In this document: piece after piece, positions 2,296 through 62,321 of the stretch
Numbering within the stretch: the first letter of the stretch is position 1
Layout of the letters: the number at the start of each line of letters is the position of its first letter
NCBI GenBank assembly: GCA_000004695.1
Contig: CM000150.2
Span: forward strand, 384,001 to 448,000
Direction of reading: 5' to 3'
DNA: 64,000 bases
Source: Dictyostelium discoideum
Taxonomy: Eukaryota
Notes under the pieces: model-generated
The model's input: only the letters and a program-made list of their open reading frames with translations
The model's database searches: none
Told to the model about the DNA's origin: nothing
Position numbers and translations under genes: made by a program

Positions 2296-3553
2296 TTAAA
2301 TATCAAGATTGATTAAACCTAAAGATTTTAATAAACCCTTATTTTTACAATGATTTTGATGAAAACAACAAATACAACCCAATTCATCAGATAAATGAAC
2401 ACCTTTATCACAATTTTCTTCACAACTTGTACATTTATTCAATTCTGAAGATTTACTAATGATAATACCTAAATGATCGAAAATTTCTTCACAACTACCA
2501 GTACCACCTTCAACAGAGTCAACTAAAAACATTGAATTTGAGGAAGAATCATTATTATTATTATTACTATTACTATTAAAAGATAATGATTCTAATTTGG
2601 TTATAAAATTTAATGATTCTTCAATATCATTCTTTGGTGAAATTACTAATGGAATAGTCGAAAGTATTTGATGAATCATTGTATGTAATGAAACTCTTGT
2701 ATCACCCATCTCTAAAAGATCAAAAATCTTTGAATCATATTCTTTTCTATCAATTGTTAATGATCTTTGAAGTTTATTTCTTAATTCTTCGATTTTTTTA
2801 TTAAAAATTGGTTTAAAAATATCTCTTTTAAAATTATAATTTTAAAATAAATAAATAAATAAATTAATATAAACATATATATTTTTTGTTTTTTTTTTAA
2901 CAAATTAATTTTATATACTTTACCTAGTGGAATTTGTAAATGAAAATTCAATACATGGTGCTTCAAAATTAATTTGTAATGGTTGTTTTAATTGAATATT
3001 TTCAATTTCAGGTTTTGATTGACGATTTTGATCATCATAATTATTTGAATTACTAAAAGTTTTCTTTTCATATGAACCAACAGAAGTTGTATAGATACCA
3101 ACACCAAATGAAACTAATAATTTTACTTGAGAATTTGATTTAAAATTGAAAAAAGATTGTTTTAAAATTTGTTTCATTTCAACTGTATTTATTTTATTTG
3201 CAGTTGTAACAATACGAACACTCTTTGGAAAATGAATTGGTTTTACAATTGCAAAACTATTTGAATATTCATTATTATTATTATTATAATTTTTATTATT
3301 GTTTGTAGTATTTAATGAAAGTTCTAAAACTTCAAAATGTGAAATTGGGCCACTATTATTTCTAAAACTTTCAGTATTATGAGTCATAAATATTGAACCA
3401 GGGAATAAACGTGTTATACTTTGAGATTTTGAAACTTTTTCAATGATATCACCATTAATTGAATTTAATTTAACATTTACAATATCATTTGTACCTGAAC
3501 CACCTCTTAATGATATTGATAAATGATGATAATCATTAGATTTCCATAAACCA

Positions 3554-3594
<41 letters not shown>

Positions 3595-5333
3595 TATTGA
3601 TTGTAAATAAATTTTATTATTATTTAATAAATTTTGTAAAATTAATTGAGAATTTGGACCAAAAAGTTTTAAAAGATAATTATAATTTGATTGTATACCA
3701 ATTTCAGAAGTTGCACAAAGTAAATGTGATGATAAAATATTTGGAAAATCACCATTGAATGAAAGTTTTTCAGCTTCACCTTCATAGAGTGACATTGGAT
3801 TATTTGAAAAGAATTTGTCTAATGGACTATAGTAATCTGGTATGTATAGTACTAAACCAAGTTTTGATCTACCTACTCTACCAACACGTTGTTTCCAACT
3901 CATTTTACTACCAGGATAACCAATGATTAGACATGCATCCAACTCTGAGATATCGACACCTGCCTCCAATGCATTGGTTGATAGGATTACATTTACATTA
4001 CCACGTTTCAATTGTTCCAATGTTTCCTTTTTATGAGCGGCTGATAACGATGCGTAATAGGGTCTTACCAATTTAGCTTTCTGTGAGAATTTACCATCAT
4101 TTGAAAAACTTTCATATAGAGTATTCAATGATTTAATTGTATTAAAGAATACAATACCCTTTATACCATACTGAATCCAATTGTTTATAATTATCGATGG
4201 TAAATAAAATGAATTTTTAGTTGGTCTAAGTGTTAGAAATACTTTTCCAAATGATCCCGAACCATTTCTATCGATTAAATGTAATCTTTGAGGTGACTCA
4301 TTTTGTCTACTAATGGTTTTTAATCCAATTTCAATTGGATTACCAACTGTAGCTGATGCCATTAAAAATTGTAATCTATTACTATTTAAAAAATTGATTT
4401 TTGAATTTAAATTAAAATGATAGTTTTGAATACGTCTAATTAAATTTATAAAATGACAACCCAATGCGCCAGAATATGTATGAATTTCATCTAAAACTAT
4501 GAAACGAAGATCGCTGAACCATTTTCTCCAACTATCATCCGAACCACTTTTTAAACCACCTCTATAGAGTTGATAATGTAACCAATCGGGACTTGTTAGG
4601 ATGATGTCGGGTTTGGTTGACTTATTTGAAAATAGTCTTGATAATGAATCTTTTTGAGTATCACGACTAAAACTATTAATATTTAAACGTAAATCAATGG
4701 GTAACATTTGATTCAACCTATTGATTGAGTTTAATTGATCATTTGCCAATGCATTCAATGGTACTAAAAACATTGCACTTGGAGTTTTAATTAAGGGTTG
4801 TTTTAAAACGTTTTGAGAGATTTGTAAATTCTTTAATTTTGCTTTTAATATCTCTTCAAATATCGGTAGAAATAAACAAAGTGTTTTACCACTTGATGTT
4901 GGTGTTGTAATAATAACATCATCACCTTGTATTACCTTTGAACGACATTCCAATTGATGACTATAAAGTTTATTATAACCCATTGATCTTAATACTCCAC
5001 TCAATATTGATGGTATCTCTTTTGGAATTTCCAATAAATTTGGTTCTTGATGTTCCGTACAATATAAATGAGTAATTGTACCTTTTAATGAAATTGCTAT
5101 CTTTTTAAATGGTTCATGTTTAATATTTTCTTCAATTTCTTCTTCTTTAATTAATATTTCATTATTATTATTATTATTGCTATTGTTATTATTAAATAAT
5201 TTATTATTTAATAATGATTCATTAATTTGTTGTTGTTGTTGTTGTTGTTGACTCGAATTTGATTTATATGATTGTATGAAACTATCAAATGATTTATTTA
5301 TATCTTCATTCTTACTTTTTATACTATTTATTG

Positions 5334-5421
<88 letters not shown>

Positions 5422-5785
5422 TACACTATTTACACTATTTACAATTGAGTTACTATTTGAATTACTATTTCTATTATCCAAATTATTTATATCATTAAAA
5501 TCATTATCATCAAATTCAAACTCGAAATCATCTTCAATTGTTACCGATGTTGTATCAATGTTTGATTGTTTATTATCATTATTGCTATTATTATTATTAT
5601 TATTATTGACATTAATTTTATTGTTGTTACAATTACTATTTTTATTTTCTTCATCATCGTCAAAGGGATCAAATGGTTTTGTTGAAGTTGGTTGGTTTTG
5701 AATTAAAGGTGTTGTTCTTTTTTGAAATGATATATGGTTTGATGCTTTATTGAAGTTATTATTATTATTATTATTATTAATATTG

Positions 5786-5822
<37 letters not shown>

Positions 5823-6186
5823 TATTATTATTGTGATTACTTATATTATTGATATTAACATTATTATTAGGTATTAAACTGTTGAAGGATAGAGCAGGTA
5901 AATCAAATGGTGATAAATCAGAATCTGAAATAGGTTGGTTACTACTATTGTTTTGTTGTGATGGAAAATTTAGGGAATATTTTGCTTTATTTTCGTTATT
6001 ATTATTATTATTATTTATATTATTACTATTATTAGTTGAGAAAGAACCAAATTGTCTTTTTGAATTATTTCTAACATTTGAATCTAAACCATTTAATAAT
6101 TCTTGTTGAGAAAATAATCTTTTCTTTGGGTTTATAAAATCATTTTTATAACTATCACTATCACTAATTTTATTATTTATATTCAT
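2296..6186 (-). CDS. Hrq1/YprA(MrfA)-like DExH-box ATP-dependent helicase with a C-terminal Cys-rich (DUF1998/MZB-type) zinc module, two exons: complement(join(2296..2824, 2924..6186)). About 1263 aa. The N-terminal ~400 aa are poly-Asn/Gln low complexity.
   Basis: Helicase motifs in the 1088-aa ORF are TPTSSGKTL (Walker A), DEIH (motif II), MASAT (motif III) and QRVGRVGRS (motif VI). On the minus strand the apparent stop TAA at 2920-2922 sits inside ACTAG|GTAAAG, a canonical donor. A 99-bp intron ends at ...TTTTAAAAG| and joins in phase to ...RDIFKPIFNKKIEELRNKLQRSLTIDRKEYDSKIFDLLE. That segment continues into the 137-aa ORF MGDTRV..., which carries CTSCEENC...CICCFHQNHC. Confidence 0.8.
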
Positions 6187-6445: not shown

Positions 6446-11584
<5,139 letters not shown>

Positions 11585-16349: not shown

Positions 16350-19300
16350 TCAATTTGATTCATTTCCAAATGTAATTGAAGAATTTTTATTTGATTTTGA
16401 ATTAATTGAAGAAGAATTTAAATCAGTTGAGGAGGAAGAAGAACTTGTATTTTTCATTTTAACAATTGACCTTATACTCTTTCTTGTATATTTACCAAGT
16501 GGAATTTGATTATTTGTTACAAGTAATACAATGACAGGAATCATTTCAGTTACGATTAAACCAACAAAAGAGAAAATAATATTACTTGGATTAACAGAAA
16601 CCAAGATTACAATGAAAATACAATGTAATACAAAACCGGTACCACATAAAACTGTGATAACAAAAGTTCTATTTCTTTGTTTATTTGCAGAGGTTTGAGA
16701 GGTTTTACTAGAGAGAGCTGATAATTTATTATAAATTTGTCTACCATAATAAATGAAAGCAATACCAATTGCCAAAGAAAGACAAGCTTGTAAAACTGCA
16801 TAAAATATTGAAACTGCATTTTGTGGTGTAGTCTGTTCCAAATTAATTAATAATCTACCACCACATGATTTTGGTGTTGATTGTTTAGTGAAATTGTAAA
16901 CTATAACAATTATAATGAAAACTATATAAAGTACAACATTGATTAAAAACACCATCATATTAATACGACCGTAAATATCATTACTAAACGATGATGCGTT
17001 ACTTAACATATACCAAATTACAATTACAATTGTAAAAGCAGTGAAATATAAAAATGTTGGTAAAACCACTAAAATATAATTTCCAACGGTTGTAGTCTCT
17101 GTAATGATACCATTTGGTAAAATGAAGAAATAAATTGATCTAATCAAAGAGAATGCAGTAAGTACTAAAAATAAAAGATGTACTAATTTAAATGGTTCAG
17201 TTGATAAAACTTTTTGAATTGTAAAGAAACCAAGATGTAATAAACCATAAATACCTAATAAACAAAATAAAACTGCTAAAACATATAATAAACCTGATGA
17301 ACTATTATTAAATGGTTTAAAATTTTCATTTTCCCAATTTGAAATTCTTTCAATTAAAAAGTATGATCTTTTACCAATTTCAATAAAATTAATTATTTCA
17401 CCACGGTCATTTAAAATTTCATCATCATCATCGTTGTCATTAGTTTTTTGATTTGAATTAAAACCATTTGAATTTTTAAAATTAATTAAACAACAATATC
17501 TATTTTTTTCATCAATTTCAATTAAACATTCTAATGGTATTAATTGACCTTGATCATTATTTTCTAAATAACCAAAATCAATAATTGGATTCTTTTTTGA
17601 ATTTCTTGAAATTGTTTGTGACATACAAATTTTAAAATTTATAACACCCTGATCAAAAATTTCTAAATTTATACCATCATTTAATAGTTTACCAATTACT
17701 GCTTTTTTATTATTAAAGAATGAATAATCATCAGGTTTATCAAATGATACAAAAGTTGAAGATAATGAAATCACTTTTTTAGATAAGAAAGTTTCTTTAT
17801 AAATTTGACCAATTGAAATTGAAACACAAGAACTTTCATCGATTGAACCCAACGAAAATGATAATGAACCATCATTGAAAATGGTAGTATTTGATGGATC
17901 ATAACATGGTTTTATAACTTTTAAAACTGGTGTATCTAAATCATTATAACAATCATCACCAATACCATCGGATGAACAACCACATGATAATGCCTCTAAT
18001 GAATTCTTTGAATTTGATGTACGACATAAAATTTCAGATTTATATAATAAATTGGTTCTACTTTGTGCTGCATTATCAAATGATGTGAAAAATCTACCTA
18101 AATCCAATGACAATTGAAAGTTGGCAATATATTTAACAGGTTCATCATTTTTAATCCATTTTAATGGTACAGCCACTGCAGGTGTCCAAATACCAGATGT
18201 CCAGCTAAATGGTTGTTTCCAAGTTTCACCAGCATATTTACAATCATTTTCATTCTTTTCATTAAATCTAAAAGTTAATGGTAGTAAATAACCACCTGGT
18301 GATCTATCAATACCATAACATAATGGTTCATATTTTGTTTGTTCACATTCATCTCTATTGGCAGCAGGTAAAGTCCACCACCATTTTCCACCAGTTTGTT
18401 CGCAAGTGGTTTGATCTATAAATGTTAAATTGAAACAACCAAATGGTGAATCAATTTGAGTTTGAAATTCACAAGTTGGTAAACTTGCACCAATCAATGC
18501 TTTACTAGTACGTGGATATAAACATTTTGGTTGATAAGGATTACTATCACCGATTTTATAATTAAAATAATATTGATCATCACATTTACCAGAGTTTTCA
18601 CAATCAATTTTATTTGTACATGGAATTTCATATAATCCACAAAATAAACCAAATGAATTACAACCATTAACTAAATCATTACAATAAGTACATTGATCAT
18701 ATGAAAAATCACCACAATTTTTAAATACTGTATTTGAATAATCAGTTGAACAAGTACTTTCATTAATTGATGTATAAATACAATACATTGTTGATGATGA
18801 TTCATCAAACCATTTTTCATGTGATTCATTATTAATTTCTGGACAAACTGTAACTCCAGTTCCAAATGTTGATAATGGTATGAAACAACCTGTAAATTGT
18901 GAACATTCTAAACCACAACCAACTGTACAACTACCATAATTATCTGAACATTCACTTTCATCATTTACAGTAAATAAATCATAATCTACAAATTTATCAT
19001 TACTATGATCTTGTTTATAACAAACAAAATTATTGTTACCCGATTCACAAGATGATTGATTTAAAAAGTTTGAATCAACATAACAATTTCTAATTGGATC
19101 AGTACAATCACCACAGAAATAATCTGGTGGATTATTATTTAAACAATCATTAATTAAATTTGTAGTATCATAACCATCATACCAATTCATTGTACCTTGA
19201 TAATCTAACCAATTACAACGTGCTAAAGCTAAACAAGAATCCTTTGGGAATGCTTCAACTAACCATGTGAAAATATTTAAACCAGTGAAACAACTATCAT

Positions 19301-21975
19301 AAACTATTGATGGTGTAGTTTGATCTAAACCAATAACCAATGGAAAACAAAAACCATTTGTAGAGGTACTTGATGAATATGCAAAACTTTTTCTAGCCCA
19401 TGATGAAGTACCCAATGGATAATTACAATCATTAGTTTGATGTTTTTTCATTAATTCAATTGATAATTCTCTTTCATTTTCAAAATTATTATTTAATAAC
19501 CCCAATATTGATAAAACATCAGTTCTTAATGGTGTTGAAATATTTGATAATATACAACTTACAAAATTTAATTCCAATTCTGAATATGCAATTAAACATA
19601 ATCCATTTCTTTTATTACAACTAGTTGTAATATTTAAATTTGAAGAGTTATAATAATTTTCACAATCTAAATCCTCTTTACAAACAATTGGATAAATTGA
19701 TGGTTTACAAGCTCTAAAAACTTTATAAAGTGAATCTGTATAATAGTTTTGTTCATCTTGAGTTACACTACATTGTTCAAATTGTGTACCTGTTATAGTT
19801 TCAGAGAAAGTATTTAAAACTGATTCTGTACAATCTGGATATGAACATTTTTCATTCATTTGATCGTTATTTACACCATTGAATACTGTTGTTGTAATAT
19901 TTTGTAATCTTGGTCTACAAACTGATTTAAAAGTTGCATAAAAACTACAACATGGGTCATTGTAATAGTTGTTAATATCATTGGTTTCCGAGCAAAGTGT
20001 TGTATTTATTAAGGTTGTAGTTTGATTTAATATTAATAAATTCTCGGCCATTTTCTGACAAGAATTATAATCATCATAAAAACTTAACACATCTAAATAG
20101 TAACGTAATCCACTTATAGTTGATGAAGTTGCATTATCAATTGATTTTAAAACTGAATCGAAAATTTCATTAATTTTTGAAAATTTATTAAATGTACATT
20201 CTGGATTAACTTGATTACCAATTGATTTAGAACCAACTATTAAACTACCATTACCATAGACTAATCTATTTTTAAATGTTAATACTGTACTTGACAAATC
20301 CTCTTCATTAAAGAAATTATATGTATTACCATCAACTGTCAATGATATTATTAATCCAAATTGATAAGTATTTTTTAAAACTAAATTTGATGTGGTTTCA
20401 TTAAATGCAATACCATTAAATTTTGGTACATTTAATGAACGTTCACCATAAATTGATGGTACTGGATATAATGGATTTAAATTGGTTCTTGGAAATGTTG
20501 GTAAATAAACTGTACATTCAACATCATAATTTTCACAATTATATTTTTTACCACCATTTTTTTTAACTTCTAAAAAACTTGTACCTGCTAATGCCCAAGT
20601 ACCAGATAATGATGGATTATTTGTAATATCTCTTAATTTATATTTACCAAATGTTGAAATATAAAAATAAACATCTGATTCATAAAATGTATAAATTCCA
20701 AAAAATAATGTTTTATTATTTTCACCTTTATTTGGACATAATTGAATTATTAAATTATCATCCACTAAATAATAATAATAAAAAAAAATAAAAAAAAAAA
20801 AAATAAAAAATAAAAGTTAATAAAATTTCAACTCTTGGTCTTATTATTAATTTTTTCAAAAAAAAACTTACAAGAAAATGTTGAAGACCATTTATAATTT
20901 GTATTTGAAAATTCTGATAATTCTAAAATATTATCAGTTGCAAATATATCAACATCATTTTGTAAAACAACATTTGAAATTGTTATATTTTTACATTGAT
21001 TAATTGTTAAAGAATATTTTAAAAATGAATTAACTGGTACAAGTGTTGGTATATAAACTTCTTCACCATCATTTAAGCATTGATAATCTGGATGAACATT
21101 TGTACAAGTTGGTGATGGTGATGGTGATGGTGATGGTGGTGATGGTGGTTGAATTGGAATTTCTTCAATTAAAACTTTATAAATTAAATCAGAACCAGCA
21201 CCAACATTTTTAATAGCAATATGAACTGTACCATAAGGATATTGTGAACGATAGTGACCTGCATAAGTTGTATTTAAAGCTGGTGATGATGGACACATTA
21301 CAATTGATGCATCACATTCTTCAGATTGTACAATTCTAGATGCACCATTTGCCAATGGATAGAATGGATAAATATCTGATGAAATTTCACCTAAACCTTG
21401 GATGGTTTTAAAGGTGATTTTATAACCTACACATTCTGATGACGCATAAAATCTATAAAGTTGATAGGATTGGTAATAGGTGTCTATGAAACCTTGAGTT
21501 TCATTACCAATTTCAATATCTTTCCAATTCATTTCACATGGTGTATAGAAAAATCTTTGTGAAAATAATTCATCACATACTTCGCATTCTGGTGGTCTAT
21601 CATCATATCCAGCTTCACAACCTTTATGTGTATAATCACATGGTGGACATTCACTTGGATATGGTGGACATGTTGCATTTGGACATGTATAACTTTCTAA
21701 TAAATAAATTGGTTCTTCAAAATAAATTGAACCACTAACAATTTTAATATTTGTATCTAATAAATTTAATGATTTAATTGTATAATTTGAATTTACATTT
21801 TTTAATTCAATTTCTTCACAATTTATAATTTTTAAAACTTAAAAAAAAAAAAAAAAAAAAAAGTTAATGGAAAAAAGTTAAAAATAAATTTTAAAAATAT
21901 CATTATTATAAAAAAAAAATAAAAAATCTTACCAATTATAAAAAAAAATAAATAAATAATTAATTTTCTAATCAT
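16350..21975 (-). CDS. 7TM receptor-like glycoprotein with a ~1350-aa Cys-rich extracellular domain. Three exons: complement(join(16350..20764, 20872..21837, 21933..21975)). About 1807 aa. The first exon is a 43-nt signal-peptide micro-exon.
   Basis: Exon 1 is ATGATTAGAAAATTAATTATTTATTTATTTTTTTTTATAATTG|GTAAGA, encoding MIRKLIIYLFFFII-. A 95-bp intron ends in a poly-T tract plus TAAG|, and the frame continues VLKIINCEEIELKN.... The 234-aa ORF 20828..21532 is internal to exon 2. Its apparent stop lies in the donor TCTT|GTAAGT, and a 107-bp intron ends TTATTTAG| at 20765. The 1471-aa ORF has seven hydrophobic helices near its C-terminus (LLYVLAVLFCLLGIYGLL ... IIFSFVGLIVTEMIPVIVLLV) and a Ser-rich tail. 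Confidence 0.65.
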
Positions 21976-22647: not shown

Positions 22648-24225
22648 TTATTTTTTATTTAAAGGGAGAATAACTTTTTGATTATTCATAAATGGTTGTA
22701 AAACTTTTGGAATTAAAACTGAACCATCAGATTGTTGATTATTTTCTAAAATGGCTAAAATTAAACGTGGTATAGCACAAGCTGTACCATTTAAAGTATG
22801 AGTGAATAATGGTGGTATTGAATTATCAATTTCATTATTATTATTACTATTATTATTATTATCATCATTTAAAATTTGTGGTGATGGAATAATTTTATAA
22901 TTATTTTCAACAAATTGTTGAATTTGGAAATCATCTTTTGTTGATTGATATTTTATATTTAATCTTTTACTTTGATAATCGGTGCAATTTGAAGCACTGC
23001 TGATTTCACCATATTCTTGTTTTGAAGGTATCCAAACTTCTATATCATATTTTCTGTATGCTGGTGCACCTAAATCTTCAGATGGCATATCTAGCACTCT
23101 GAAATGTAGACCTAATTCACTGAATAATTCAATTTGAATTTTTAAAAGTTCCTCAAGAATCTCATTAGATTCGTGTGGTTTTGAAATGATAAACATCTCA
23201 ACCTTACTAAACTGGTGTACCCTATAGATGCCCTTATTTTGCAAGCCTCTGCCAGCCTCGGGTCTGAAACAGTGTGAATAGCCCACCATTTTAATAGGCA
23301 ACTCTGCAGATTGCAATGGCTCCTCATTGGCGTACATACCCGCTAATGGGATTTCAGAAGTTGCCGATAGGCAAAGATCCCTATCCTTAATCCAAAACAA
23401 TTGGTCAGCATCTGAACGTGCATGAAACCCACAAGCTTCTGCCAAATTTGGGTGAATCAAATCTGGTGTTATCACAGACTGAAATCCGTATTTATAAGTT
23501 AGTTTAGAAAATGCCCAATAGGACAACGCCATTTCCAGCATGGCACCCTCCCTTGTGAAATAGTAGTATTTATGACCGGTGGTCTTTGAAGCCGATCGAA
23601 TCACTCCTAAACTCTCACCCAACTCTAAATGATCTTTAATTGGTTCATCTGGTTTTAAATAATTTGGTTTCTCACCAACCATTTTAATAATGTTTGCATT
23701 GGATTCTGCTCCTATTGGCACTGATGGGTGTGTATTATTTGGTATTTTCAAAGCTTCACTTGTGATCTCATTGAAGTATATATCATGTTTCTCTTCCAAT
23801 GCTATTAAATCCTCTTTCACTTGTTTACCTTGTTCAACTAATTCCAATCTATCATTTTTATTACTTTCACCACCACCTTTCATCATTAATTTCATCTTTG
23901 ATGCAATTTCATTTCTTTTTGCTCTAAATGTATCCAATTCTTTCTTTATAATTCTATATTCATCATAATTTTTAATTAATTTCTCTAATTCAACTGGTGA
24001 TTTTCTTTTTATAATATTTTCTTTAATTTGATTTTCATTATCTTTTATAAATTGAAAATCAATTCTTGGTTTAATTTGATTAACAATAATATGTTGTTGC
24101 TGTTGTTGTTGATTAATTTCATTTTGGTCAATTTGCTTAATTTTACTTGTATAATATTTTAATAAATTTGAATTTAAATTTAATTTATTATTACATTGAT
24201 TAAAATTTTTAAATAATTTTAACAT
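22648..24225 (-). CDS. Seryl-tRNA synthetase (class II aaRS), bacterial/mitochondrial type, with an N-terminal presequence-like extension.
   Basis: A single 525-aa ORF. It has the coiled-coil tRNA-binding arm, NTHPSVPIG, motif 2 FRPEAGRGLQNKGIYRVHQF and motif 3 GTACAIPRLILAILENNQ. The N-terminus MLKLFKNFNQCNNKLNLNSNLLKYYTSKIKQ resembles a mitochondrial targeting peptide. Confidence 0.8.
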   Translation of the reverse strand: MLKLFKNFNQCNNKLNLNSNLLKYYTSKIKQIDQNEINQQQQQQHIIVNQIKPRIDFQFIKDNENQIKENIIKRKSPVELEKLIKNYDEYRIIKKELDTFRAKRNEIASKMKLMMKGGGESNKNDRLELVEQGKQVKEDLIALEEKHDIYFNEITSEALKIPNNTHPSVPIGAESNANIIKMVGEKPNYLKPDEPIKDHLELGESLGVIRSASKTTGHKYYYFTREGAMLEMALSYWAFSKLTYKYGFQSVITPDLIHPNLAEACGFHARSDADQLFWIKDRDLCLSATSEIPLAGMYANEEPLQSAELPIKMVGYSHCFRPEAGRGLQNKGIYRVHQFSKVEMFIISKPHESNEILEELLKIQIELFSELGLHFRVLDMPSEDLGAPAYRKYDIEVWIPSKQEYGEISSASNCTDYQSKRLNIKYQSTKDDFQIQQFVENNYKIIPSPQILNDDNNNNSNNNNEIDNSIPPLFTHTLNGTACAIPRLILAILENNQQSDGSVLIPKVLQPFMNNQKVILPLNKK

Positions 24226-42113: not shown

Positions 42114-43479
42114 AACGGACATGCATTTTTGGATGATGCATAGATTGTTTGATTGCAAATGGAGTTATTAACAGTGGTTAAGACGGTGAATTCAGTATTG
42201 GAGCATCTAATATATACCTTTATCTCTGGTTTGGTTGTACAAATGGTAGGGGTAGATGATGAATTAAATGAAATTAAAATATTGTTTGATGTGTTACTAC
42301 TTGCAATAAATGGTACTTTGGATACTGTAGGTTTATCAAGGAATGGAATGGTTGTTTTTCCAAGTCCTAAAATAAGACAACCATAATACTTTCCACTTAA
42401 TCTTGAGAATTTATTACATACATCAACAGTACCACCGAAATTGAAAAGGAATCTATTGGGTTCTAGAGCTGACGAATATGGATTTGATGATGATGTTCTT
42501 TAATAATTTTTTTTTTTTATCAGTAAAATAAAATCTATAAAAGAAAATAATAATAATAATAATAATAAAATACATACAATTTCAATGATCTTAAATCATA
42601 TTGATTGCCACCAAATAAGTATTTGTTTTCAATTGGACAGGCAAATTTAGTGGAGATTTGTTGGATACCTTGTACCATTGACTGAAACACGTTATTGAAT
42701 TGGACCCTCACCAGCTGTAGCAGTACATAAAGTTGATGTTTCACAAAGACTAAAATAAAAAATGTTGCTACCATTTGTTGTAGTATATTGTGATGGTCCT
42801 AAAACACTATTGAGATTAATTAATTAATTTAATTTTTTAAAAATATAAAATAAATAGGTTAGATAATAAAATAATGATAAATTAAAATAAAAATAAAATA
42901 AAAGAATACATACTTTGAAGTTGGTGATAAATCGAAAAATCTATTTTTAGAATCTTGGAAAACACATCTATTTTTAGAATCTTTAGTATGTGGACTATCC
43001 ACTCTAGCATTTTGAATGAAATCATAGTGGTTTGTATCAGAGTATGTATAAACATAATTGTAAAGACTATAAAATGGAATGGTTTTTGGATTTCCAACTT
43101 CTACAGTTAATAATGATTGAATAGAATTAACTTGGTCTTCCAATACACCAATCGAAGCACGAGAGGATATATCGGTTGTCTTTGATTGAGCAGAGGTTGA
43201 ATTTGATTCGAGTGATGATGTTTTTGGTGCAATGAATTGGAAATTACTTTCAAAGAAACACAAATTATTTGAATTTAATGATTGATAAATCATTGGTTTT
43301 TTATCATTATTGGCTGCATTTAATAACTCTATGAAATATGTTTTGAAATCATAAACATTTTCTTTATTACTTAACACATCAATTAAAAATGATACACTTG
43401 ATTCTTTAAAACCTTCTAATTCATATAAATCATAAAAGAATGATGTTATTGAAGAGCTGTAATATGATTGAACATTCAA
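42061..43479 (-). CDS. Uncharacterized multi-exon gene. Exon 1 is complement(42913..43479) and encodes 189 aa (MNVQSYYSSSITSFFYDLYELEGF...FDLSPTSK) before a GTATGT donor. The downstream exons are only partly resolved. Candidate pieces include SMVQGIQQISTKFACPIENKYLFGGNQYDLRSLKL and a last exon GLGKTTIPFLDKPTVSKVPF...TEFTVLTTVNNSICNQTIYASSKNACPFYLFIYLFIYLFIILKKNNK*.
   Basis: The 206-aa ORF 42859..43479 runs into the donor AAG|GTATGT at 42912. ORF 42535..42774 ends at another GTATGT donor. The plus-strand ORF 42153..42386 is antisense to an open minus-strand frame that ends in a hydrophobic tail. I did not determine how the pieces join. Confidence 0.35.
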
Positions 43480-43758
43480 GAAAAAAAATTATTTTAAATA
43501 ATTTTAAATAAATAAAAAAAAAACAATCAATATTTTAATGTTTACTATGAAGCATTAAAAAAAACGCCATCAATATTTTAGTGCATATCTTTTCAAAATT
43601 TTTAAAAAAAAACGAGCAAAATCTTGGTGTAAATGAATTCATTTTTTTTATTTTTTTTATTTTTCTTTGAAATATCTTTTGATGCTAAAAATACCAAACC
43701 AATCATGATTTATTCTAAAAAATTTTGAACATTTTATTTTATTTAATTTTATTTTTTT

Positions 43759-43821
<63 letters not shown>

Positions 43822-43852
43822 GCAAGAAACGATTAATTAAATAATTAAAAGA

Positions 43853-45187
43853 ATGAAATATTTGGTTACTATATTTTTATTATTTATTTTGTTCTCAATA
43901 ATTAAATGTCAACCTCCAAGATGTTTATACAGTGATATTTATGCAAAATCACCACACCCAAACTTAAAACCCTCTGTAAATTATGTTAATTGGTGGATTT
44001 ATGAACATTTTAATGATGCTGGTTATGGTGGTTCATCTTTTTATACAGATAGTAATTTAAAGGACCTAAATGAAAAAATTTTTGAATTGAGCGATTATAA
44101 TATGAGAGATCAAAACCAGGTATCTCCAATTACTCAAACATTCAGTCAAGTGAATGATCTTCTATTTTCAAGTATTTCTTACAATAATGCTTTTGATGAC
44201 GATTACTCAAAAGGAAGTGCACATGAAAAAGGATTTTTTATTTGGAACGAACAAGGTGGTATTCATGTTATTCATAGTATTCCAAAAACACCTCAAAAAA
44301 TGAATGATTTCTTTTTACATACCTCCAAAGATAATTATTTACAACATTCAATTTGTATTACATTGTCACAAGCTGAATTAGATATTATTCCTAAATATTT
44401 GATTTATACCAACCCTGCAATTGCAACAATAAATTCTAAAAAGATTACTGGTTCAATCATAAGTTCTTTAACAGAAGAAAGTATAACAGGTGTTAATAAT
44501 GTTAACAAAAACGATACATTTGATACAGTAACAGATATTGAAATTGGAGATACGGAACAGTTTACAGAAATCGATACAATTATTCAGGATAATTTTATTG
44601 TAGGTCCAACTCTCCCAAGAATTATTAAAATTCTACAATGGGCTAAATTGGTATGTATAATTATTTTTATTATTGTTTATTTTATAGTTGTAAATTATAC
44701 TCACTCAAATTATACCACTTTTTGTATTTCCCAGGCTAATCATGTCGCTGGAAATATTGATTTTTCATCAGATCCAAATTTTCCAAGCTATCATTATTAT
44801 AGAGCAAAGCAACATTCATTTGGTGAATACTTTGTTCAAACTCCAATACCAGAAAAGAAAAATATTATTGCTGGATCCTCTCAGTATAACTTGGCAAGAA
44901 TGAATAACATTGAAATTTTATGGCAATACATCGGTAAATATTACGGTAGTATTTCAAAATGGATGTCTCAAACAATGACTACAAATAAAGGATTTGCTAA
45001 TAATGTAGTTACTGGTACAACTTTCTCATTAACATTTAGGCTCAATTATCCATTCCTAAATAACCATCAACAAAGAAGTGCCTCAAAAGATCATTCAAAG
45101 TTCATGTATGGTACCAGTAACAATGGTCAACAAAAAATCTTTTGTATAGGTGGTTTAAATTGGCAAAGAGCTCAAGGTAGGATAAAA

Positions 45188-45266
<79 letters not shown>

Positions 45267-46458
45267 TATATATTATATATTATATATTATATTATTTATT
45301 ATTTATTATTACTAATTAATCGTTAATTTGAATATTTTTATTGATACAATACACTTCATAATTAGAATCAAGAGGAGGGGCAGCTTTTTGCATGAATGGT
45401 ATTGGTTATTTAGTTGATTATATGGAAAGACATGTATCATGGACAAGAAAAGGAATAGCCCAAAATCAAGTAAAATCTGGTGTCCCACAATCAACAGTAG
45501 GAACTGAAATAGACTTTTCTTGGATAAAGGATCAATTGAACATCCAAAATCTAGATATTCCCATGGGATTCGAAATTTTAATACCAACAACACAAAATCC
45601 ACTTCCAAAAAGAGTTATTGAACCAGCACAATCAAATTATAAAACCAAAAATGCTCCACTCCTTGTTGAACCTGTGCAGACACCATTAGGTGCATTAGTA
45701 GGTTATAAAACTGAGGCAATTTCAATTGATGTTTTCCCAAGTGTAAAAGATAAAGTACATATATGTCTACAATCATCCCAATGTCCGTATGAATTATCAG
45801 CTAAATCTAATATCATTTCAAATATTAATCTTATTGTTACTCCTTATCAATTAAACTCAGAATCAGAACCTGTTATGACAATTTCCTCCAATGCAAACCC
45901 TGCTATTTCTGTTTCACAAGTATTGAAGAATAATTATTTCTCTTCTATGGCCACTGAAAAAATAATTCAACTAAATGGTAATAATTTTGGAGTTTATTTA
46001 CAAAAGACTCAACAAACTCTAGGTGATTTTAAATTTAAATTTCCACAATCAAGTATCAATACCCCTTGTACTATTTCACCAATAGGTAGTAATATTATTT
46101 CAATTATGTTTCATGAAACTTGTGTTGATCAACTTATATTTTGCTTATTTAGTCATTTCCACATGTATTCAATTAATAATATACCAGTGTTTATGGTAGA
46201 TGACCAAGCTTCATTTTATAATGATGTTACCCAAATTCTTGTAAGATAATATTCAGTTACAAATATAAAATGCACAAAACTTTTTGATCATTACATTCTA
46301 ATACCATTATTAATTTTTTTAAATAGAATGAATTCTTTCCAAACATTCCAGATATCAGTAGATGTGTTGAACAACCACCTTCGCCTGGAACTGCAATGAC
46401 TGATAACGATGAAATTGATGAATTGATGGGATCTCAGGCCATGACTGATGAAATTTAA
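43853..46458 (+). CDS. DNase II-family (acid deoxyribonuclease) homolog with a ~290-aa C-terminal extension of unknown function. Exons: join(43853..44650, 44735..45176, 45366..46240). A possible fourth exon is 46327..46458; if it is not used, exon 3 ends at the TAA 46247..46249.
   Basis: Signal peptide MKYLVTIFLLFILFSIIKC. DNase II motifs are GFFIWNEQGGIHVIHSIPKTP, DHSKF and CIGGLNWQRAQ. The intron GTATGT...CCCAG (84 bp) is read through in frame by the ORF track. The donor CAAG|GTAGGA at 45177, the (TTA)n intron and the acceptor ATAATTAG| at 45365 join in phase to ...E-SRGGAAFC, a match to the DNase II 'RSGGFIC' region. The frame then runs on as MNGIGYLVDY... for 285 aa (ORF 45392..46249). 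The stop TAA overlaps a GTAAGA donor. An 86-bp intron (acceptor TTAAATAG|) would add the in-frame NEFFPNIPDISRCVEQPPSPGTAMTDNDEIDELMGSQAMTDEI*. Confidence 0.7.
45189..45260. repeat. (TTA)n microsatellite (about 24 units) inside the last large intron of the DNase II-like gene.
   Basis: Perfect triplet run, followed by (TATAT) units. Confidence 0.9.
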
Positions 46459-46689
46459 AAAATTAATAATCAAAAAAAAACACTGTTTTTAAAAAAAAAA
46501 AAAATAATAAAAAAAAAATCTAAAAAAATTGAATCACGATATGGTATCTGTATTGTTTATGGCTTGATTTAAAATTTGTGGTAAATCTTTGACCTTAGGA
46601 TTCTATTTTAATTTCCAAAAAAAAAAAAGTAATATCAAATTGAATTTTTAAATGACAAATGATAGTATTTTATTTTTTAATTGTAAATT

Positions 46690-47772
46690 ATTCTTTTTCA
46701 ATACAAACTTTAACTTTGTATTGGATTTGATGAAGGATGATCCAGATTTATCATTATAACAAATAAGGGTATTATTATATGCATAGTTAAATTCTACTTC
46801 TCCTGGATAACAGGCAAGTTTATTTGATGCAGAGTTGAATTCTGTGATAATTGTTTGATTGGTAATTACAATTGGCTCTACTTCGGATGGTGGAACTTCA
46901 AAGCATGCATGAATAATCTGAAGCTTTTACCAATGAATTCTTTGAGCATGATGAATATTTATTGTAACTATAGCATTCTACATTATTAATGAATGAATGT
47001 TCAGGTTCACCGCCATCACTAACACATTCAACAATGTTTGATTGGGTTTCGCTATTTGAACAGAAAATAGTAGAATTATGATTGTATGAATATTCATTGA
47101 ATCCATCTTTACAATAGATTGGACTATTTTGACCATAGAATATCATTGATTTTTCATTGGCATTGTATTCACATTTTAATGAACTTGAAACTTTTGAAAC
47201 TGTTGAAATAGAGAATTTATAGTCAATGCAGATTTTGAACGAACACCACAATTAATTTCAGTTACAAAGTTGGTTGTATTACATTTAATACCATTATTAT
47301 TAGCATCAATTTGACAAGTGATTGATTTGTTGAAATTGAAACTAAAATTATTATTATCAATACATGTTACAGTTTCATTGAATTGATTATCAATTGTAAA
47401 GATACGATCATTATGATTAATTGAGAAAAATACTGCAGAGTAAGGTGTTGAAGCAATTGATAAAAGATTGGATGTTGGTACTGGTGCTGTTGATGATGAT
47501 AATAGGTTTCCACCCATTGATGATTTTGTTACCACCAATGCTAAAGCTATAGTTGATACACGTTTAATACCATTCTTTGCAACCTGAGTTACAACTCTTC
47601 TTGTTACCTCTGCGAACCCAAATTGTAATGATTTCTCTAATGCTCCTGAAAATGATGCTGTAGATGCTAATATTGAACCAGATTGAGCTGCTGTTGCAGA
47701 TGTTGCAGATGTTGCAAATGCTATTTGTGTAAGTGGTAAAGCAGTTGATGCTAATAATGCTGCTGCAACCAA
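46690..47772 (-). pseudogene. Frameshifted gene for a secreted Ala/Ser/Thr-rich, Cys-rich protein. Three successive reading frames carry the coding sense. It is a probable pseudogene, or else sequence errors.
   Basis: ORF 47176..47772 starts with the signal peptide MVAAALLASTALPLTQIAFA, a Ser/Thr/Ala-rich run and Cys modules. The sense then continues in a second frame (46898..47251, ...KCEYNANEKSMIFYGQNSPIYC...DYSCML*) and in a third frame (CFEVPPSEVEPIVITNQ...ACYPGEVEFNYAYNNTLICYND...). The second shift sits in a CATGCATGC tandem: TCATGCATGCTTTGAAG. Confidence 0.5.
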
Positions 47773-47828
47773 AGATTAAGATTTGTTCATTTTGTAATAA
47801 TGGGCCAATATTCTATAAGAATCTAATT

Positions 47829-55478: not shown

Positions 55479-56790
55479 ATTAATTTAATTTTAGGTATCA
55501 ATTAGATCAGGTGGTCATTCAGCAACACAATTTTCAATGTTAAATAAAACTGTTAATATTGATTTAAGTTCATTAAAAGGTATTGAAATTGATGTTGAAG
55601 CTCAAACTGTTGTTGTACAAGCTGGTGTACAAGTTATTGAATTATATAATGCCACAACTAAATTATTATTGGCAACAACTGCTGGTAGTTGTCCAACTGT
55701 TGGTATGGGTGTTGTATTAGGTGGTGGATCAAATTACTTTGGTGGTAAATATGGTTATATGGCTGATAACATATTAGAATTCACCGTTGTACTTGAAGAT
55801 GGTTCAATTGTTAAAGCCAATCCAAAGAATAAATATAGTGATCTCTATTGGGCATTGGCTGGTTCTGGTGGTGGTGGTTTTGGTGTTGTTGTAGATTACA
55901 AAATTAAAGTTTACCCAATTCCGCAATATTTTTACAAGAATACCATTCGTTTCGATATTGTCAATTTAGATAAAGCTCTCGCCTTATTGGATTCTTATGT
56001 ACGTTCTGCCACTGAACAAACTCGTGAAAATATCTATGTCAATATGTACTCTCAATTAACTTTGAAATCCGCAAATATGACTCCATCCGCTAGTATTACA
56101 TTCTTTTACAATGGTCCACTTGAAGAGGGTGATTTCGAATTCAGAAAATTGTTAGCCGATTTCCTTTGTCCACCATCAAATCCAACCTGTACACCATTGG
56201 GTAGAGTCACCACCATGGATATCCAAACTTTAAAGAAAACATTCTGGGAAGTCATTAGCTCAATGAGTTATGATAATAATCCATTAAGACAATTCACCAA
56301 AGGTAGATTCGTTAAGAAATTATCTAAAAACGATGTACCAAATGCTATCAACGATTTCTATAAATATGCCGTCACCAATATCATCAATTCAACCTCTTTA
56401 ATTAAACCAGAAACATTGTTAAATATTAATCAAGCTATTTTCTATCATGGTGGTAAACAAAATCAAGATAGAACTGGTTCAATCGATTCTCCATTCAATT
56501 CTTTCCTTCACAGAGGTGATGAAGCTATGTGGTCATACACTATTGTCGCTCAATATAATAACACTGAAAATGATCCATTATTCTCTGGTCTTAGAAAACT
56601 TGTAAACTCTAAACTCTCTTCAATTGGTGATAAATTAAATAATAACTATCCAGATGATGAATTTGAAGATTGGCAAACCGGACTCTATGTCACCAAATCA
56701 AATTATAAAAAACTTCAAGAAATTAAAGGAAAATATGATCCAAATAATTATTTTAATTATCCACAATCAATTGAATTACCAAAGAAATAA
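55137..56790 (+). CDS. Secreted FAD-linked oxidase, berberine-bridge-enzyme-like (BBE-like, VAO/PCMH family). Two exons: join(55137..55355, 55495..56790). About 504 aa.
   Basis: Signal peptide MKLNNILLFLSFVLITINQISITQA. Exon 1 ends ...AQSINRG|GTAAGT. A 139-bp intron has a poly-T tract and ends TTTTAG|. Exon 2 starts VSIRSGGHSATQFSM (the FAD-binding RSGGH motif), with ...GGGGFGVV and the C-terminal BBE signature KYDPNNYFNYPQSI. The ORF-track ORF 55137..55406 reads into the intron. Confidence 0.78.
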
Positions 56791-59513: not shown

Positions 59514-59865
59514 ATGTCAACAACATCAATGATATTAACTAAAAAAAATATAATAATATTATCAATTATAATTATAACAATAATTGCATATCAATTTTAT
59601 ATAACATCACCACAATCATTCCCATCATCAAATACAATCACAAATACAATAAATACATCTGGTAAAGGATTAGATTATACAGAATTATTAAATTTACAAA
59701 AAGATTTAAAAGCGCAACAAACTGAAATTAGAAAACAATTAGAACAATTAAAATATTCAATTAATGATATAAATCAAAATCAAAATGAAAATCAAAATCA
59801 AATTAACAATGAATATAATAATAATAAATTAAATGATGAACAAGAAAATAATAATAATAATAATT

Positions 59866-59896
<31 letters not shown>

Positions 59897-60929
59897 ATTA
59901 ATAAATTATAAAGAAAGAATTAAAAAGAAATCAAAAGAACAACCAAATACATGTATACCAGTTGAAGGTAAATTATTATGTTTACCAAATTTTATAGTTA
60001 TTGGTACAATGAAGAGTGGTACAACATTTTTAGATTATTATTTACAAAAGCATCCACAAATCGCTCATCATAGTAAGAAAGAGATTTGGTATTTCAATAG
60101 TTATTATGCAAATGGTATTGAATGGTATGCAAAACATTTTGAACAATATACAAGTTTAGAGAATCAGAAATTAATTGGTGAAGCAACACCATTCTATATT
60201 AATAATCCAAATACTGCACCACGTTTATTTACAACCCTAAAGAATGCCAAATTGATTCTACTATTGAGAGACCCAGTGGAACGTTCCTTATCACAATACC
60301 ATTTCTCAATTCAATGGTTAAAAAGAAACAAGTCACCACCATTGGAATACTCTTTTGAGCATTTAATCCATGAAGAAGCTGACGTAATTGAAACTTGTAT
60401 ACGTGGTCATGAGAGATATAAAGAAGCATTTAAACAAAGAAAAGAAATTGAAAAGAATGGCGGTGGTGGTTTACTAAATGATAATACTAGTGGTGAAGAA
60501 TTCAATTTGGTTGATCCTTTTTACACTTTACATTCTGAAAAGAATTGGACATTCTATAAAGATTGTATTAGATGTGATAAATGTTTCCAAATTGGTTCAA
60601 TTCTTCATACAAGTGGTCATCCAACTTTTGGTATGTTAGCAAAATCACTCTATTTTGAGCAATTGGATTATTGGTTAAACTTTTTCCCATTGGAACAAAT
60701 TCATATCATTAGATATGAAGATATCTCTTCACAACCTGAATCAGTTTTAAGTGAATTAGAAGATTTCTTAGATATTAATCATATTGATTATGGTGAATTT
60801 AAACCAAGAAATGTTGTACAACATGATCCAATGAATCAAGAAATTAAATCATATTTAATTAATTATTTTAAACAAAGTAATGAAAAACTTTATAATTTAT
60901 TAAATAGAGATTTTAAATGGCAAAATTAA
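59514..60929 (+). CDS. Type II membrane carbohydrate sulfotransferase (sulfotransferase domain), 471 aa.
   Basis: The N-terminal anchor is MSTTSMILTKKNIIILSIIIITIIAY. The 5'-PSB motif FIVIGTMKSGTTFL and the 3'-PB motif LLLRDPVERSLSQYHF identify the sulfotransferase domain. A poly-N/Q spacer is present. Confidence 0.7.
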
Positions 60930-61091: not shown

Positions 61092-61260
61092 TTATTTAAA
61101 TTTTTTTAAATTTAAAATTAAATTATTTGAAATTGATTTTAAAATTGTTAAATTTAAATTTTTGTTAAAATTATTTAAATTATTTGAAAATGTTGAAAAT
61201 CTTTGAAATAAAATATTATTTAAATTTTTATTTTTAATAATATTTAAATTATTTAAAAAA

Positions 61261-61291
<31 letters not shown>

Positions 61292-62321
61292 TATTATTAT
61301 TATTATTATTAAAATTTATATCTTTAATTGATTCTTTAAAAACTCTTTTTGTATATTCATCATTATTTGTTAATTCATTTTTTTTTAAAATTTTTTGATT
61401 TAAAAATTCTGGTCTACTATTATTTGATTTTAAATTATAATTAAAAAAATTTTGAGTAACTTTATTAAATTGTAAAACATCTTCCAATTGTAAAGAGTGA
61501 CCTGAATTTTCACAAATATAAATTAAATTTGGTTGAATAATATCATAGGTTTTAATAACTCTTTTACAATCAATGAATTTATCATGTGTACCGAAAAACA
61601 TTACAATTGGAAATGGTCTATTTAAAACTTTTTCTTTAATTTTATTATAAGGTTTAATTTTATATTTTATCATTGCAAACATTGTTGAAATTATTATTGA
61701 GGGGGAGATTGTTTTTCTCTCATTATACATTTTCGAGAGTAATGGTAGTATGAATTCCCTGTTATTTCCATACTGTTTAATTCTAGATGGTGAATTTAAA
61801 AATGATTGGGAATATAATAAATCAATTAAATAATTTGATGGGTCGACTTTATTCTTTTTTGCAATGTAGTCTATGAGGTATAATTGTTGAGCACCTTTTT
61901 GAAATAGGAATCCGTAGTTTATATTGGGTGGGAATGATACTAAATTGAGGGTTTTTATAATTGATGGTGCCATTAGGGATAGCTCATATGCGATACTTGA
62001 TCCCATGGATACACCAACTATATTAACTTTTTCCCATTTTAAATGCTCAATTAATTCATTGGCATCTGATGCAAAATCATTTATACTACTTACACCATTA
62101 AATTCAGATTCACCAACACCAACATGATCATAAATACAAATTGAATATTTATTTGGATTATTTTCTAAAAAATATTTTATTGTTGATAACCAATATTTAC
62201 CACCTAATAATAATCCCATTATAAATAAACATTTCTCTTCACCATCTCCAAAAACTTTATAATTCATTTTAAATGGTTGATTTCTATTTTTAACATTTAT
62301 AAAAATATTTGAATTTTCCAT
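61092..62321 (-). CDS. Alpha/beta-hydrolase fold protein, 409 aa, with an Asn-rich C-terminal extension.
   Basis: The nucleophile elbow is NIVGVSMGSSIA (GxSxG). A catalytic His context ENSGHSLQLE lies near the end of the fold. The start is HGVGESEF... Confidence 0.65.

Follow-up and report, generated by a model that had tools for sequence, protein, structure and literature searches.

The stretch of Dictyostelium discoideum DNA analysed here (the window: 64,000 nucleotides (nt) of contig CM000150.2) has a guanine-plus-cytosine (GC) content of 21.7% and short GT..AG introns, and carries at 43853-46458, on the forward strand, a gene for a DNase II-like protein. In most cases DNase II is a lysosomal enzyme with a single domain and about 350 residues. 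We conclude that this interval is very probably one intact four-exon D. discoideum gene, DDB_G0267616, whose product combines a putative cleavable signal peptide, a DNase II domain, an orphan C-terminal module and an acidic tail. When 43853-44650, 44735-45176, 45366-46240 and 46327-46458 of the forward strand are joined, they give a 2247-nt coding sequence and a 748-residue product that matches the AX4 hypothetical protein DDB_G0267616 (XP_647168.1, UniProt Q55GL6) with 100% identity over 100% of its length, and the gene called in the public assembly occupies the same 43853-46458 span (2606 bases). A first-pass annotation of this DNA had read the interval as a single gene, a DNase II homolog with an extension and a spliced acidic fourth exon, a reading that coincides exactly with the public gene model. 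That four-exon model is correct, and we uphold it as the annotation of DDB_G0267616, a known but uncharacterised gene. Its features, in amino acids (aa) of the spliced product where they are coding, are as follows.

43853-44650, + strand: exon 1, aa 1-266; putative signal peptide and first half of the DNase II domain, with H124-E-K126 and HSIPKTP
43853-43909, + strand: putative signal peptide, aa 1-19
44222-44230, + strand: first HxK motif, H124-E-K126, with H124 and K126 invariant in the family
44651-44734, + strand: intron 1, 84 nt, GTATGT..CCAG, phase 0; in frame and stop-free
44735-45176, + strand: exon 2, aa 267-413 plus 1 nt; encodes the second half of the DNase II domain, including CIGGLNWQ
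45092-45100, + strand: second HxK motif, H386-S-K388, in exon 2
45177-45365, + strand: intron 2, 189 nt, GTAGGA..TTAG, phase 1, 7% GC
45188-45311, + strand: (TAT)n microsatellite within intron 2, found with Tandem Repeats Finder (TRF)
45366-46240, + strand: exon 3, aa 414-705; its first ~25 residues complete the DNase II core, and the module follows from about aa 439 (45440)
45371-45379, + strand: R416-G-G, at the start of exon 3, with C422 nearby in the nuclease core
46241-46326, + strand: intron 3, 86 nt, GTAAGA..ATAG, phase 0, 19% GC; a TAA at 46247-46249 directly after the donor hexamer
46327-46458, + strand: exon 4, aa 706-748 plus the TAA stop
46327-46386, + strand: folded part of exon 4, aa 706-725; end of the helix 694-708, with C718 at 46363-46365
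46387-46455, + strand: acidic tail in exon 4, aa 726-748, predicted to be disordered
46506-46511, + strand: AATAAA hexamer 48 nt past the stop codon, a candidate polyadenylation signal read from the sequence

The three introns (84, 189 and 86 nt) have GC contents of 20%, 7% and 19%, and the exons 28-38%. All splice sites are canonical, including the two junctions that the first-pass annotation had named, 45176/45366 for intron 2 and 46240/46327 for intron 3. Introns 1 and 3 stand at exactly the positions they have in paralogs and in D. firmibasis, and intron 2 is within one nucleotide. Intron 2 had been described as almost entirely microsatellite, which overstates the case: the (TAT)n array is present but fills 124 of the 189 bases, about two thirds. 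Because intron 1 is in frame and has no stop codon, a mechanical listing of open reading frames (ORFs) reads straight through it; its retention would add 28 hydrophobic residues and leave the ORF unbroken. Paralogs and D. firmibasis have an intron at the same position, between KL and A; the D. firmibasis intron is 67 nt long and contains stops, and it is therefore spliced in that species.

The DNase II domain and the C-terminal module

The only Pfam match in the protein is DNase_II (PF03265). It covers two stretches of the first ~440 residues, and its E-value of 1.9e-31 and score of 109.9 bits (cut-off 23) put it far beyond chance. The domain spans approximately residues 20-438, behind a putative signal peptide (residues 1-19) that is the only hydrophobic stretch and is followed by Q. 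The mature protein is acidic, with 10 Cys and one N-x-T sequon, and both the N-terminus and the cysteine content fit a secreted or lysosomal protein. The DNase II motifs expected from the first pass are all found in the spliced product, namely HSIPKTP at 141, DHSKF at 385, CIGGLNWQ at 403 and SRGGAAFC at 415, and AHEKG is present at 123. The first HxK, H124-E-K126, lies within GSAHEKGFFIWN, its H and K are invariant in 22 sequences, and by motif context we take it to be the canonical first HxK (H100/K102 of Burkholderia thailandensis DNase II, hereafter Bth; human H113). DHSKF at 385-389 aligns to DHAKW of the Bth structure 5i3e, which contains the second HxK (Bth H279/K281), and CIGGLNWQRAQESRGGAAF aligns with CVGDINRMVTQEKRGGGTI at the same spacing across the exon 2/3 junction, the arginine that corresponds to Bth R305 being part of this alignment. 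Across the alignment of 22 family members, H124, K126, H386, S387, K388, R416, G417 and G418 show no variation.

Family profiles compared with PDB sequences gave nothing at an E-value of 0.01; the only match, at 0.38, was a stretch of 34 residues in which DHSK...C-x-G-x-L-N....QE-x-RGG aligns to residues 285-318 of 5i3e with identical spacing. As the aligned segment crosses the exon 2/3 junction, it provides an independent validation of the 45176/45366 splice; indeed, splicing of intron 2 restores QESRGG, with the spacing from C403 to RGG that is seen in the Bth enzyme. AlphaFold2, given the family alignment, produced a full-length model with a predicted local distance difference test (pLDDT) score of 77.3 and a predicted template-modelling (pTM) score of 0.74. 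With this model as query, Foldseek returned the Bth DNase II structures 5i3e and 5unb as the sole strong matches (E-values 1.8e-7 to 9.6e-7, probability 1.0), followed by Tdp1 and then by NucT and Zucchini, all of the phospholipase-D (PLD) superfamily. In the predicted structure the N-terminal domain has the PLD-superfamily fold of solved DNase II, and by sequence and modelled fold the protein is a member of the DNase II family, except in the second-shell W and R residues considered below.

From about residue 439 onwards there is no Pfam match, either for the extension alone or for 17 homologous sequences. We distinguish here a module of approximately 290 residues (439-725) and a tail of 23 residues (726-748). 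The first-pass annotation had been right that a long C-terminal extension is present but not about its size, since the part that is not DNase II begins at about residue 439 and amounts to ~310 residues with exon 4 included. It had also seen no recognisable domain in the extension, and we likewise found no Pfam match and no relatives by sequence or among solved structures. A profile search with the extension alone, which it had proposed, matches only Dictyostelium DNase II-like proteins, and the proposed comparison across dictyostelids shows that the extension aligns from D. discoideum to D. purpureum; it also aligns to the distant subfamily of DDB_G0270642. An exhaustive HMMER search of 1.84 billion representative proteins with the extension profile returned five clusters, all of them Dictyostelium DNase II-like proteins of 740-834 residues in which the match is C-terminal. 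Six cysteines of the extension are invariant, five in exon 3 (547, 553, 648, 666 and 673) and one in exon 4 (718), and the compact module is probably disulfide-bonded. Modelled on its own, the extension reaches a pLDDT of 84.5 and a pTM of 0.82 (79-84 pLDDT over all five models), with a predicted beta-rich (beta-sandwich) first half and an alpha/beta second half, and judged by these models it is a real folded domain. Because it has no Pfam match, only Dictyostelium profile matches and no metal-binding motif, we regard the module as an orphan, apparently restricted, as far as the searches reach, to D. discoideum and close relatives. Two candidate identities were set aside. A DNA-binding domain is unlikely given the acidic calculated isoelectric point (pI) of 5.4, and a zincin-like metallohydrolase (YbeY, thermolysin) does not suit the alpha/beta part, as the HExxH or H-x-x-x-H metal-binding helix is not present in the family. 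For the first part of the extension, an Ig-like, C2 or FN3 beta-sandwich was considered as a candidate.

The AX4 family has five members, three of subfamily A and two of subfamily B: DDB_G0267616, DDB_G0290837 (the closest paralog), DDB_G0291033, DDB_G0270642 and the truncated DDB_G0270848. Two sequence searches placed this type of DNase II only in D. discoideum and related strains, D. citrinum, D. dimigraforme, D. firmibasis and D. purpureum. A nuclease-domain profile search of a word-indexed database returned Dictyostelium proteins only and is uninformative on canonical-length D. discoideum DNase II and on other dictyostelids. Although D. discoideum DNase II homologs have been included in published phylogenies (PMC4148230, PMC5982838), we found no mention in the literature of DDB_G0267616, its paralogs, its neighbour genes or the extension. 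What sets the architecture apart is an orphan module fused to a DNase II domain, which makes it a DNase II variant that has not been described before and not something categorically new.

Several points weigh against reading DDB_G0267616 as an intact gene for an active, module-bearing nuclease. The catalytic roles of Bth H100, K102, H279 and K281 have been described, and a second-shell interaction, W239-W282-R298, has been called conserved in DNase II (PMC5449587). By the 5i3e profile alignment, however, Bth W282 corresponds to F389 (45104-45106; F, L, M or I in the family) and Bth R298 to W409 (45164-45166; W or Y in the family). Between D. discoideum-clade copies the Nei-Gojobori ratio of nonsynonymous to synonymous substitution (dN/dS) is 0.5-0.9, in the nuclease domain and the extension alike, and values this high are as compatible with relaxed constraint as with diversifying selection. 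The alignments behind the AlphaFold models were shallow, with 17-22 sequences. We infer splicing, secretion and nuclease activity alike from the sequence, and the role of the module in sorting, assembly or partner binding is a proposal. Calculated by region, dN/dS ranges from 0.27 to 1.08 and gives no clear signal of purifying selection, with a possible bias from the extreme AT content, so it is not usable as coding evidence for exon 3 or exon 4. Replacement of W282 and R298 is consistent across the Dictyostelium family, and F389 and W409 could represent a compensated rearrangement around the second HxK motif. As two second-shell residues are replaced, we consider catalytic competence likely but not certain.

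The same two differences, F389 for W and W409 for R, together with the fast evolution of the whole gene, would also suit a DNase II-like protein that has lost its nuclease activity and acts by binding, for example via the C-terminal module, and there is a parallel in Trichinella, where a published study reports a DNase II-like protein without DNase II activity (PMC10249883). We consider such a loss unlikely, since both HxK motifs and the arginine of RGG are invariant in 22/22 members from two subfamilies and five species, a pattern that argues for catalytic constraint and is hard to explain otherwise.

A different concern is that this chromosome-1 copy might have arisen by a recent segmental duplication and be turning into a pseudogene, with its ORF intact only for lack of time. 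Both flanking partner genes are fragments (see below), dN/dS is high, and no protein more than 90% identical has been recorded from other sequenced strains (the cluster has one member). At least one close relative, P0003 (locus L006, 10001-12625), has an annotated model that keeps its frame only through additional 'introns' of 22, 44 and 56 nt, which suggests patched frameshifts in either a pseudogene or a faulty assembly. In DDB_G0267616, by contrast, 748 codons run uninterrupted over four exons with canonical splice sites, and the invariant Cys, His and Lys residues are all kept. Of 120 positions with at least 90% conservation in the family, it also retains 119, the sole change being a conservative L to I, and so it does not look degenerate. 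Incipient decay is therefore, in our judgement, quite improbable.

Exon 4 and the end of the coding sequence

The fourth exon was only a possibility in the first-pass annotation, which had also considered that exon 3 or exon 4 might belong to a separate overlapping gene. The ORF at 45392-46249 that it had pointed to does exist, yet the TAA at its end does not overlap the GTAAGA donor as had been thought, but follows the donor hexamer. The last intron lies at the same place, after Y-N-D-V-x-x-I/V-x, and in phase 0, in the window gene and at three comparison loci, with lengths of 86 nt in the window gene, 83 nt in the paralog DDB_G0291033 (L001), 121 nt in a diverged D. discoideum-clade strain (L007) and 271 nt in D. 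firmibasis (L002). This variation in length at a fixed position and phase puts exon 4 in another genomic frame than exon 3, so that splicing is needed to reach it. In D. purpureum and in the distant subfamily, too, the last intron is in phase 0 and a short exon comes after it. The D. firmibasis annotation was built with developmental mRNA-seq (PMC11193728).

The exon-4 peptide, R-C-V/I..P-P-x-P-G plus an acidic tail, is present in 17/17 subfamily members, and its cysteine, the last in the protein, is kept even in the other subfamily, which has no acidic tail. Exon 4 has a GC content of 0.38 versus 0.19 in intron 3 and 0.14 in the 3' flank. In both AlphaFold models a helix (694-708) crosses the exon 3/4 junction with high confidence and residues 727-748 are predicted to be disordered. 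Thus the acidic fourth exon, far from being just possible, is part of the public gene model, with a conserved peptide, a preserved intron position and phase and coding-like GC. An ungapped codon comparison of exon 4 between loci was uninformative owing to internal indels. Near the C-terminus, the acidic tail of most members of subfamily A carries a loose motif, hydrophobic-M-x-S-x-S/A-M/L-x-D; one D. purpureum protein ends similarly (..SQSQTMNDDS), and the other subfamily ends in a short basic ..WCIKK.

An in-frame stop two codons inside intron 3 could be taken to mean that exon 4 is usually left out (giving a main product of 707 residues that ends in ...QILVR), or that exon 3, exon 4 or both come from a different gene, but we regard this as extremely improbable, given that the stop is not conserved in the paralog at L001, that the exon-4 peptide with its invariant C718 occurs in every full-length member aligned and in the final exon behind a phase-0 intron in 6/6 mapped gene structures, that the module would otherwise be left with five cysteines and a truncated helix, that the 38% GC of exon 4 stands against 14-19% around it, and that exon 3 cannot be another gene's because it begins with the RGG motif required by the nuclease core, together with C422.

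Surroundings and divergence of the gene

On both sides of the intact four-exon gene lie pieces of a much larger gene, which we identified by blastn, and an unusual homopolymer tract stands upstream.

42114-43468, - strand: fragment of a giant TIG-domain membrane-protein gene, 87-92% identical to L006 6940-8537 and 18686-20325, L007 and L001
43732-43808, + strand: poly(T) tract of 77 nt, uninterrupted-looking (TRF), a short way before the start codon in the upstream intergenic or promoter region common to the DNase II-like gene and the divergent-partner relic
46617-47774, - strand: fragment of a second giant TIG-domain gene, from its 3' end, which encodes the transmembrane segment and Cys-rich tail; 91-93% identical to L006 1181-2333 and 12951-14121 and 88% to L007

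The fragment at 42114-43468 is divergent with respect to the DNase II-like gene and is an internal piece only, with a ~200-bp deletion and with ~1.08 kb gone at about 43467, including the ORF for the signal peptide; the fragment at 46617-47774 is convergent with the gene. Because both flanks are partner-gene fragments that are 87-93% identical to intact genes, 42114-47774 appears to be a 5.7-kb segmental duplicate in which the nuclease gene alone is intact. The 414-aa and 244-aa genes called here in the public assembly are probably relics, which is a second consequence of this work for the annotation.

Elsewhere, DNase II-like genes at L001 (1-8567), L002 (1-8618), L006 (1237-22625) and L007 (1-12613) stand head-to-head with the giant gene, 160-510 bp apart, and the giant gene is the divergent partner of most paralogs checked. 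It encodes 2429-2513 residues, with a signal peptide, TIG repeats, one transmembrane segment and a Cys-rich tail. The pair is tandemly repeated in L006 and L007 (two strains), D. firmibasis has kept the head-to-head arrangement, and D. dimigraforme (L009) has kept it in part. A homology search with the 903-aa C-terminal ORF of the giant gene gave one uninformative match. A conserved small downstream partner was also considered and rejected, as the minus-strand genes after the tandem D. firmibasis copies (L008) are not homologous to the downstream relic in the window.

The family diverges rapidly at these loci. Between the syntenic loci L001 (AX4-type) and L007 (diverged strain), the ATP-sulfurylase gene is 98.8% identical, whereas the DNase II-like gene is 84.8%, the giant TIG-domain gene 91.8% and a ComC-like gene 93.3% identical. 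Either this stretch of the locus is diverging some ten times faster than its housekeeping neighbour, or the comparison is not one between orthologs, orthology in tandem arrays being uncertain.

Further along the window, large ORFs lie at 2923-6186 (-), 22651-24225 (-), 55537-56787 (+), 59514-60926 (+), 61095-62321 (-), 6449-11584 (-) and 16353-20765 (-). They include a DEAD-box helicase, a seryl-tRNA synthetase, a FAD/BBE oxidase, a sulfotransferase and an alpha/beta hydrolase, and two very long ORFs of the window (1712 and 1471 aa) have no Pfam match.

Proposed function and comparison with known systems

We propose that the product of DDB_G0267616 would enter the secretory pathway and, given the biology of a bacterivorous amoeba, act in acidic phago-lysosomes or outside the cell. 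From the DNase II and PLD literature (PMC5449587), it would be expected to cut DNA at acid pH and without metal ions by the two-step PLD mechanism, in which H124 would attack the phosphodiester, giving a covalent phospho-histidine intermediate, before H386 would activate water, leaving 3'-phosphate ends. The C-terminal module may be a non-catalytic accessory that directs the nuclease, through sorting, through oligomerisation or clamp formation, or through binding of a partner or particle; being acidic, the module itself would presumably not bind DNA. The gene would belong to a small, fast-evolving family of variable copy number and would have reached its chromosome-1 site by segmental duplication.

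Nearly every DNase II-like protein found in D. discoideum and close relatives is fused to this ~290-residue module with a predicted fold, which makes the module a good candidate for sorting, assembling or aiming a nuclease in a professional phagocyte that eats bacteria. As D. discoideum is genetically tractable, the role of the module can be tested directly. Rapid divergence and frequent pairing with giant TIG surface-protein genes hint at a role beyond bulk DNA digestion, although we offer this as a lead only. A more far-reaching idea is that the nuclease and the giant TIG gene form a co-duplicating, unusually fast-evolving two-gene cassette, in which the module would dock the secreted nuclease on a polymorphic surface protein, the two serving as a cell-surface effector against prey, competitors or non-kin amoebae. 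We hold this to be a long shot; if it were true, the window would contain a 'freed' nuclease copy that has lost its partner.

The arrangement, and the arrangement alone, recalls the divergent tgrB1/tgrC1 pair of Dictyostelium (PMC12745789), with a head-to-head position relative to a TIG-domain membrane-protein gene, duplication, and divergence that is much faster than that of a nearby housekeeping gene. Here, however, the partner has 2400-2500 residues, and in place of a second Tgr protein the pair includes a secreted nuclease-like protein. Lineage-specific gene multiplication is also seen in Trichinella spiralis, whose expanded DNase II-like family reportedly has members among the excretory-secretory products of the worm (PMC4148230, PMC10249883); it also shows that inactive members can occur in such families (PMC10249883). 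That family belongs to another lineage, and the exhaustive profile search found no such C-terminal module outside Dictyostelium.

Bth DNase II (5i3e/5unb; PMC5449587) is the best structural match, and its second catalytic segment has the same spacing as in DDB_G0267616. It differs in being a bacterial homodimer that forms a U-shaped clamp and in having no C-terminal module (PMC5449587), and its sequence identity to the model is 13-14%. Similarity at the sequence level is low, as the E-value of 0.38 of the family profile against the only solved DNase II also indicates. With canonical lysosomal DNase II (human DNASE2, C. elegans NUC-1; PF03265) the protein shares a putative signal peptide, the two HxK motifs, the C-x-G-x-x-N...QE-RGG(G)-x-x-C pattern and a domain of ~420 residues, as well as, presumably, an acid, metal-independent mechanism. 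The differences lie in the replaced W and R second-shell residues and in length: whereas canonical DNase II ends about 35-40 residues after RGGG, judging from the chain length of 5i3e and from general knowledge of the family, DDB_G0267616 runs for some 310 residues further.

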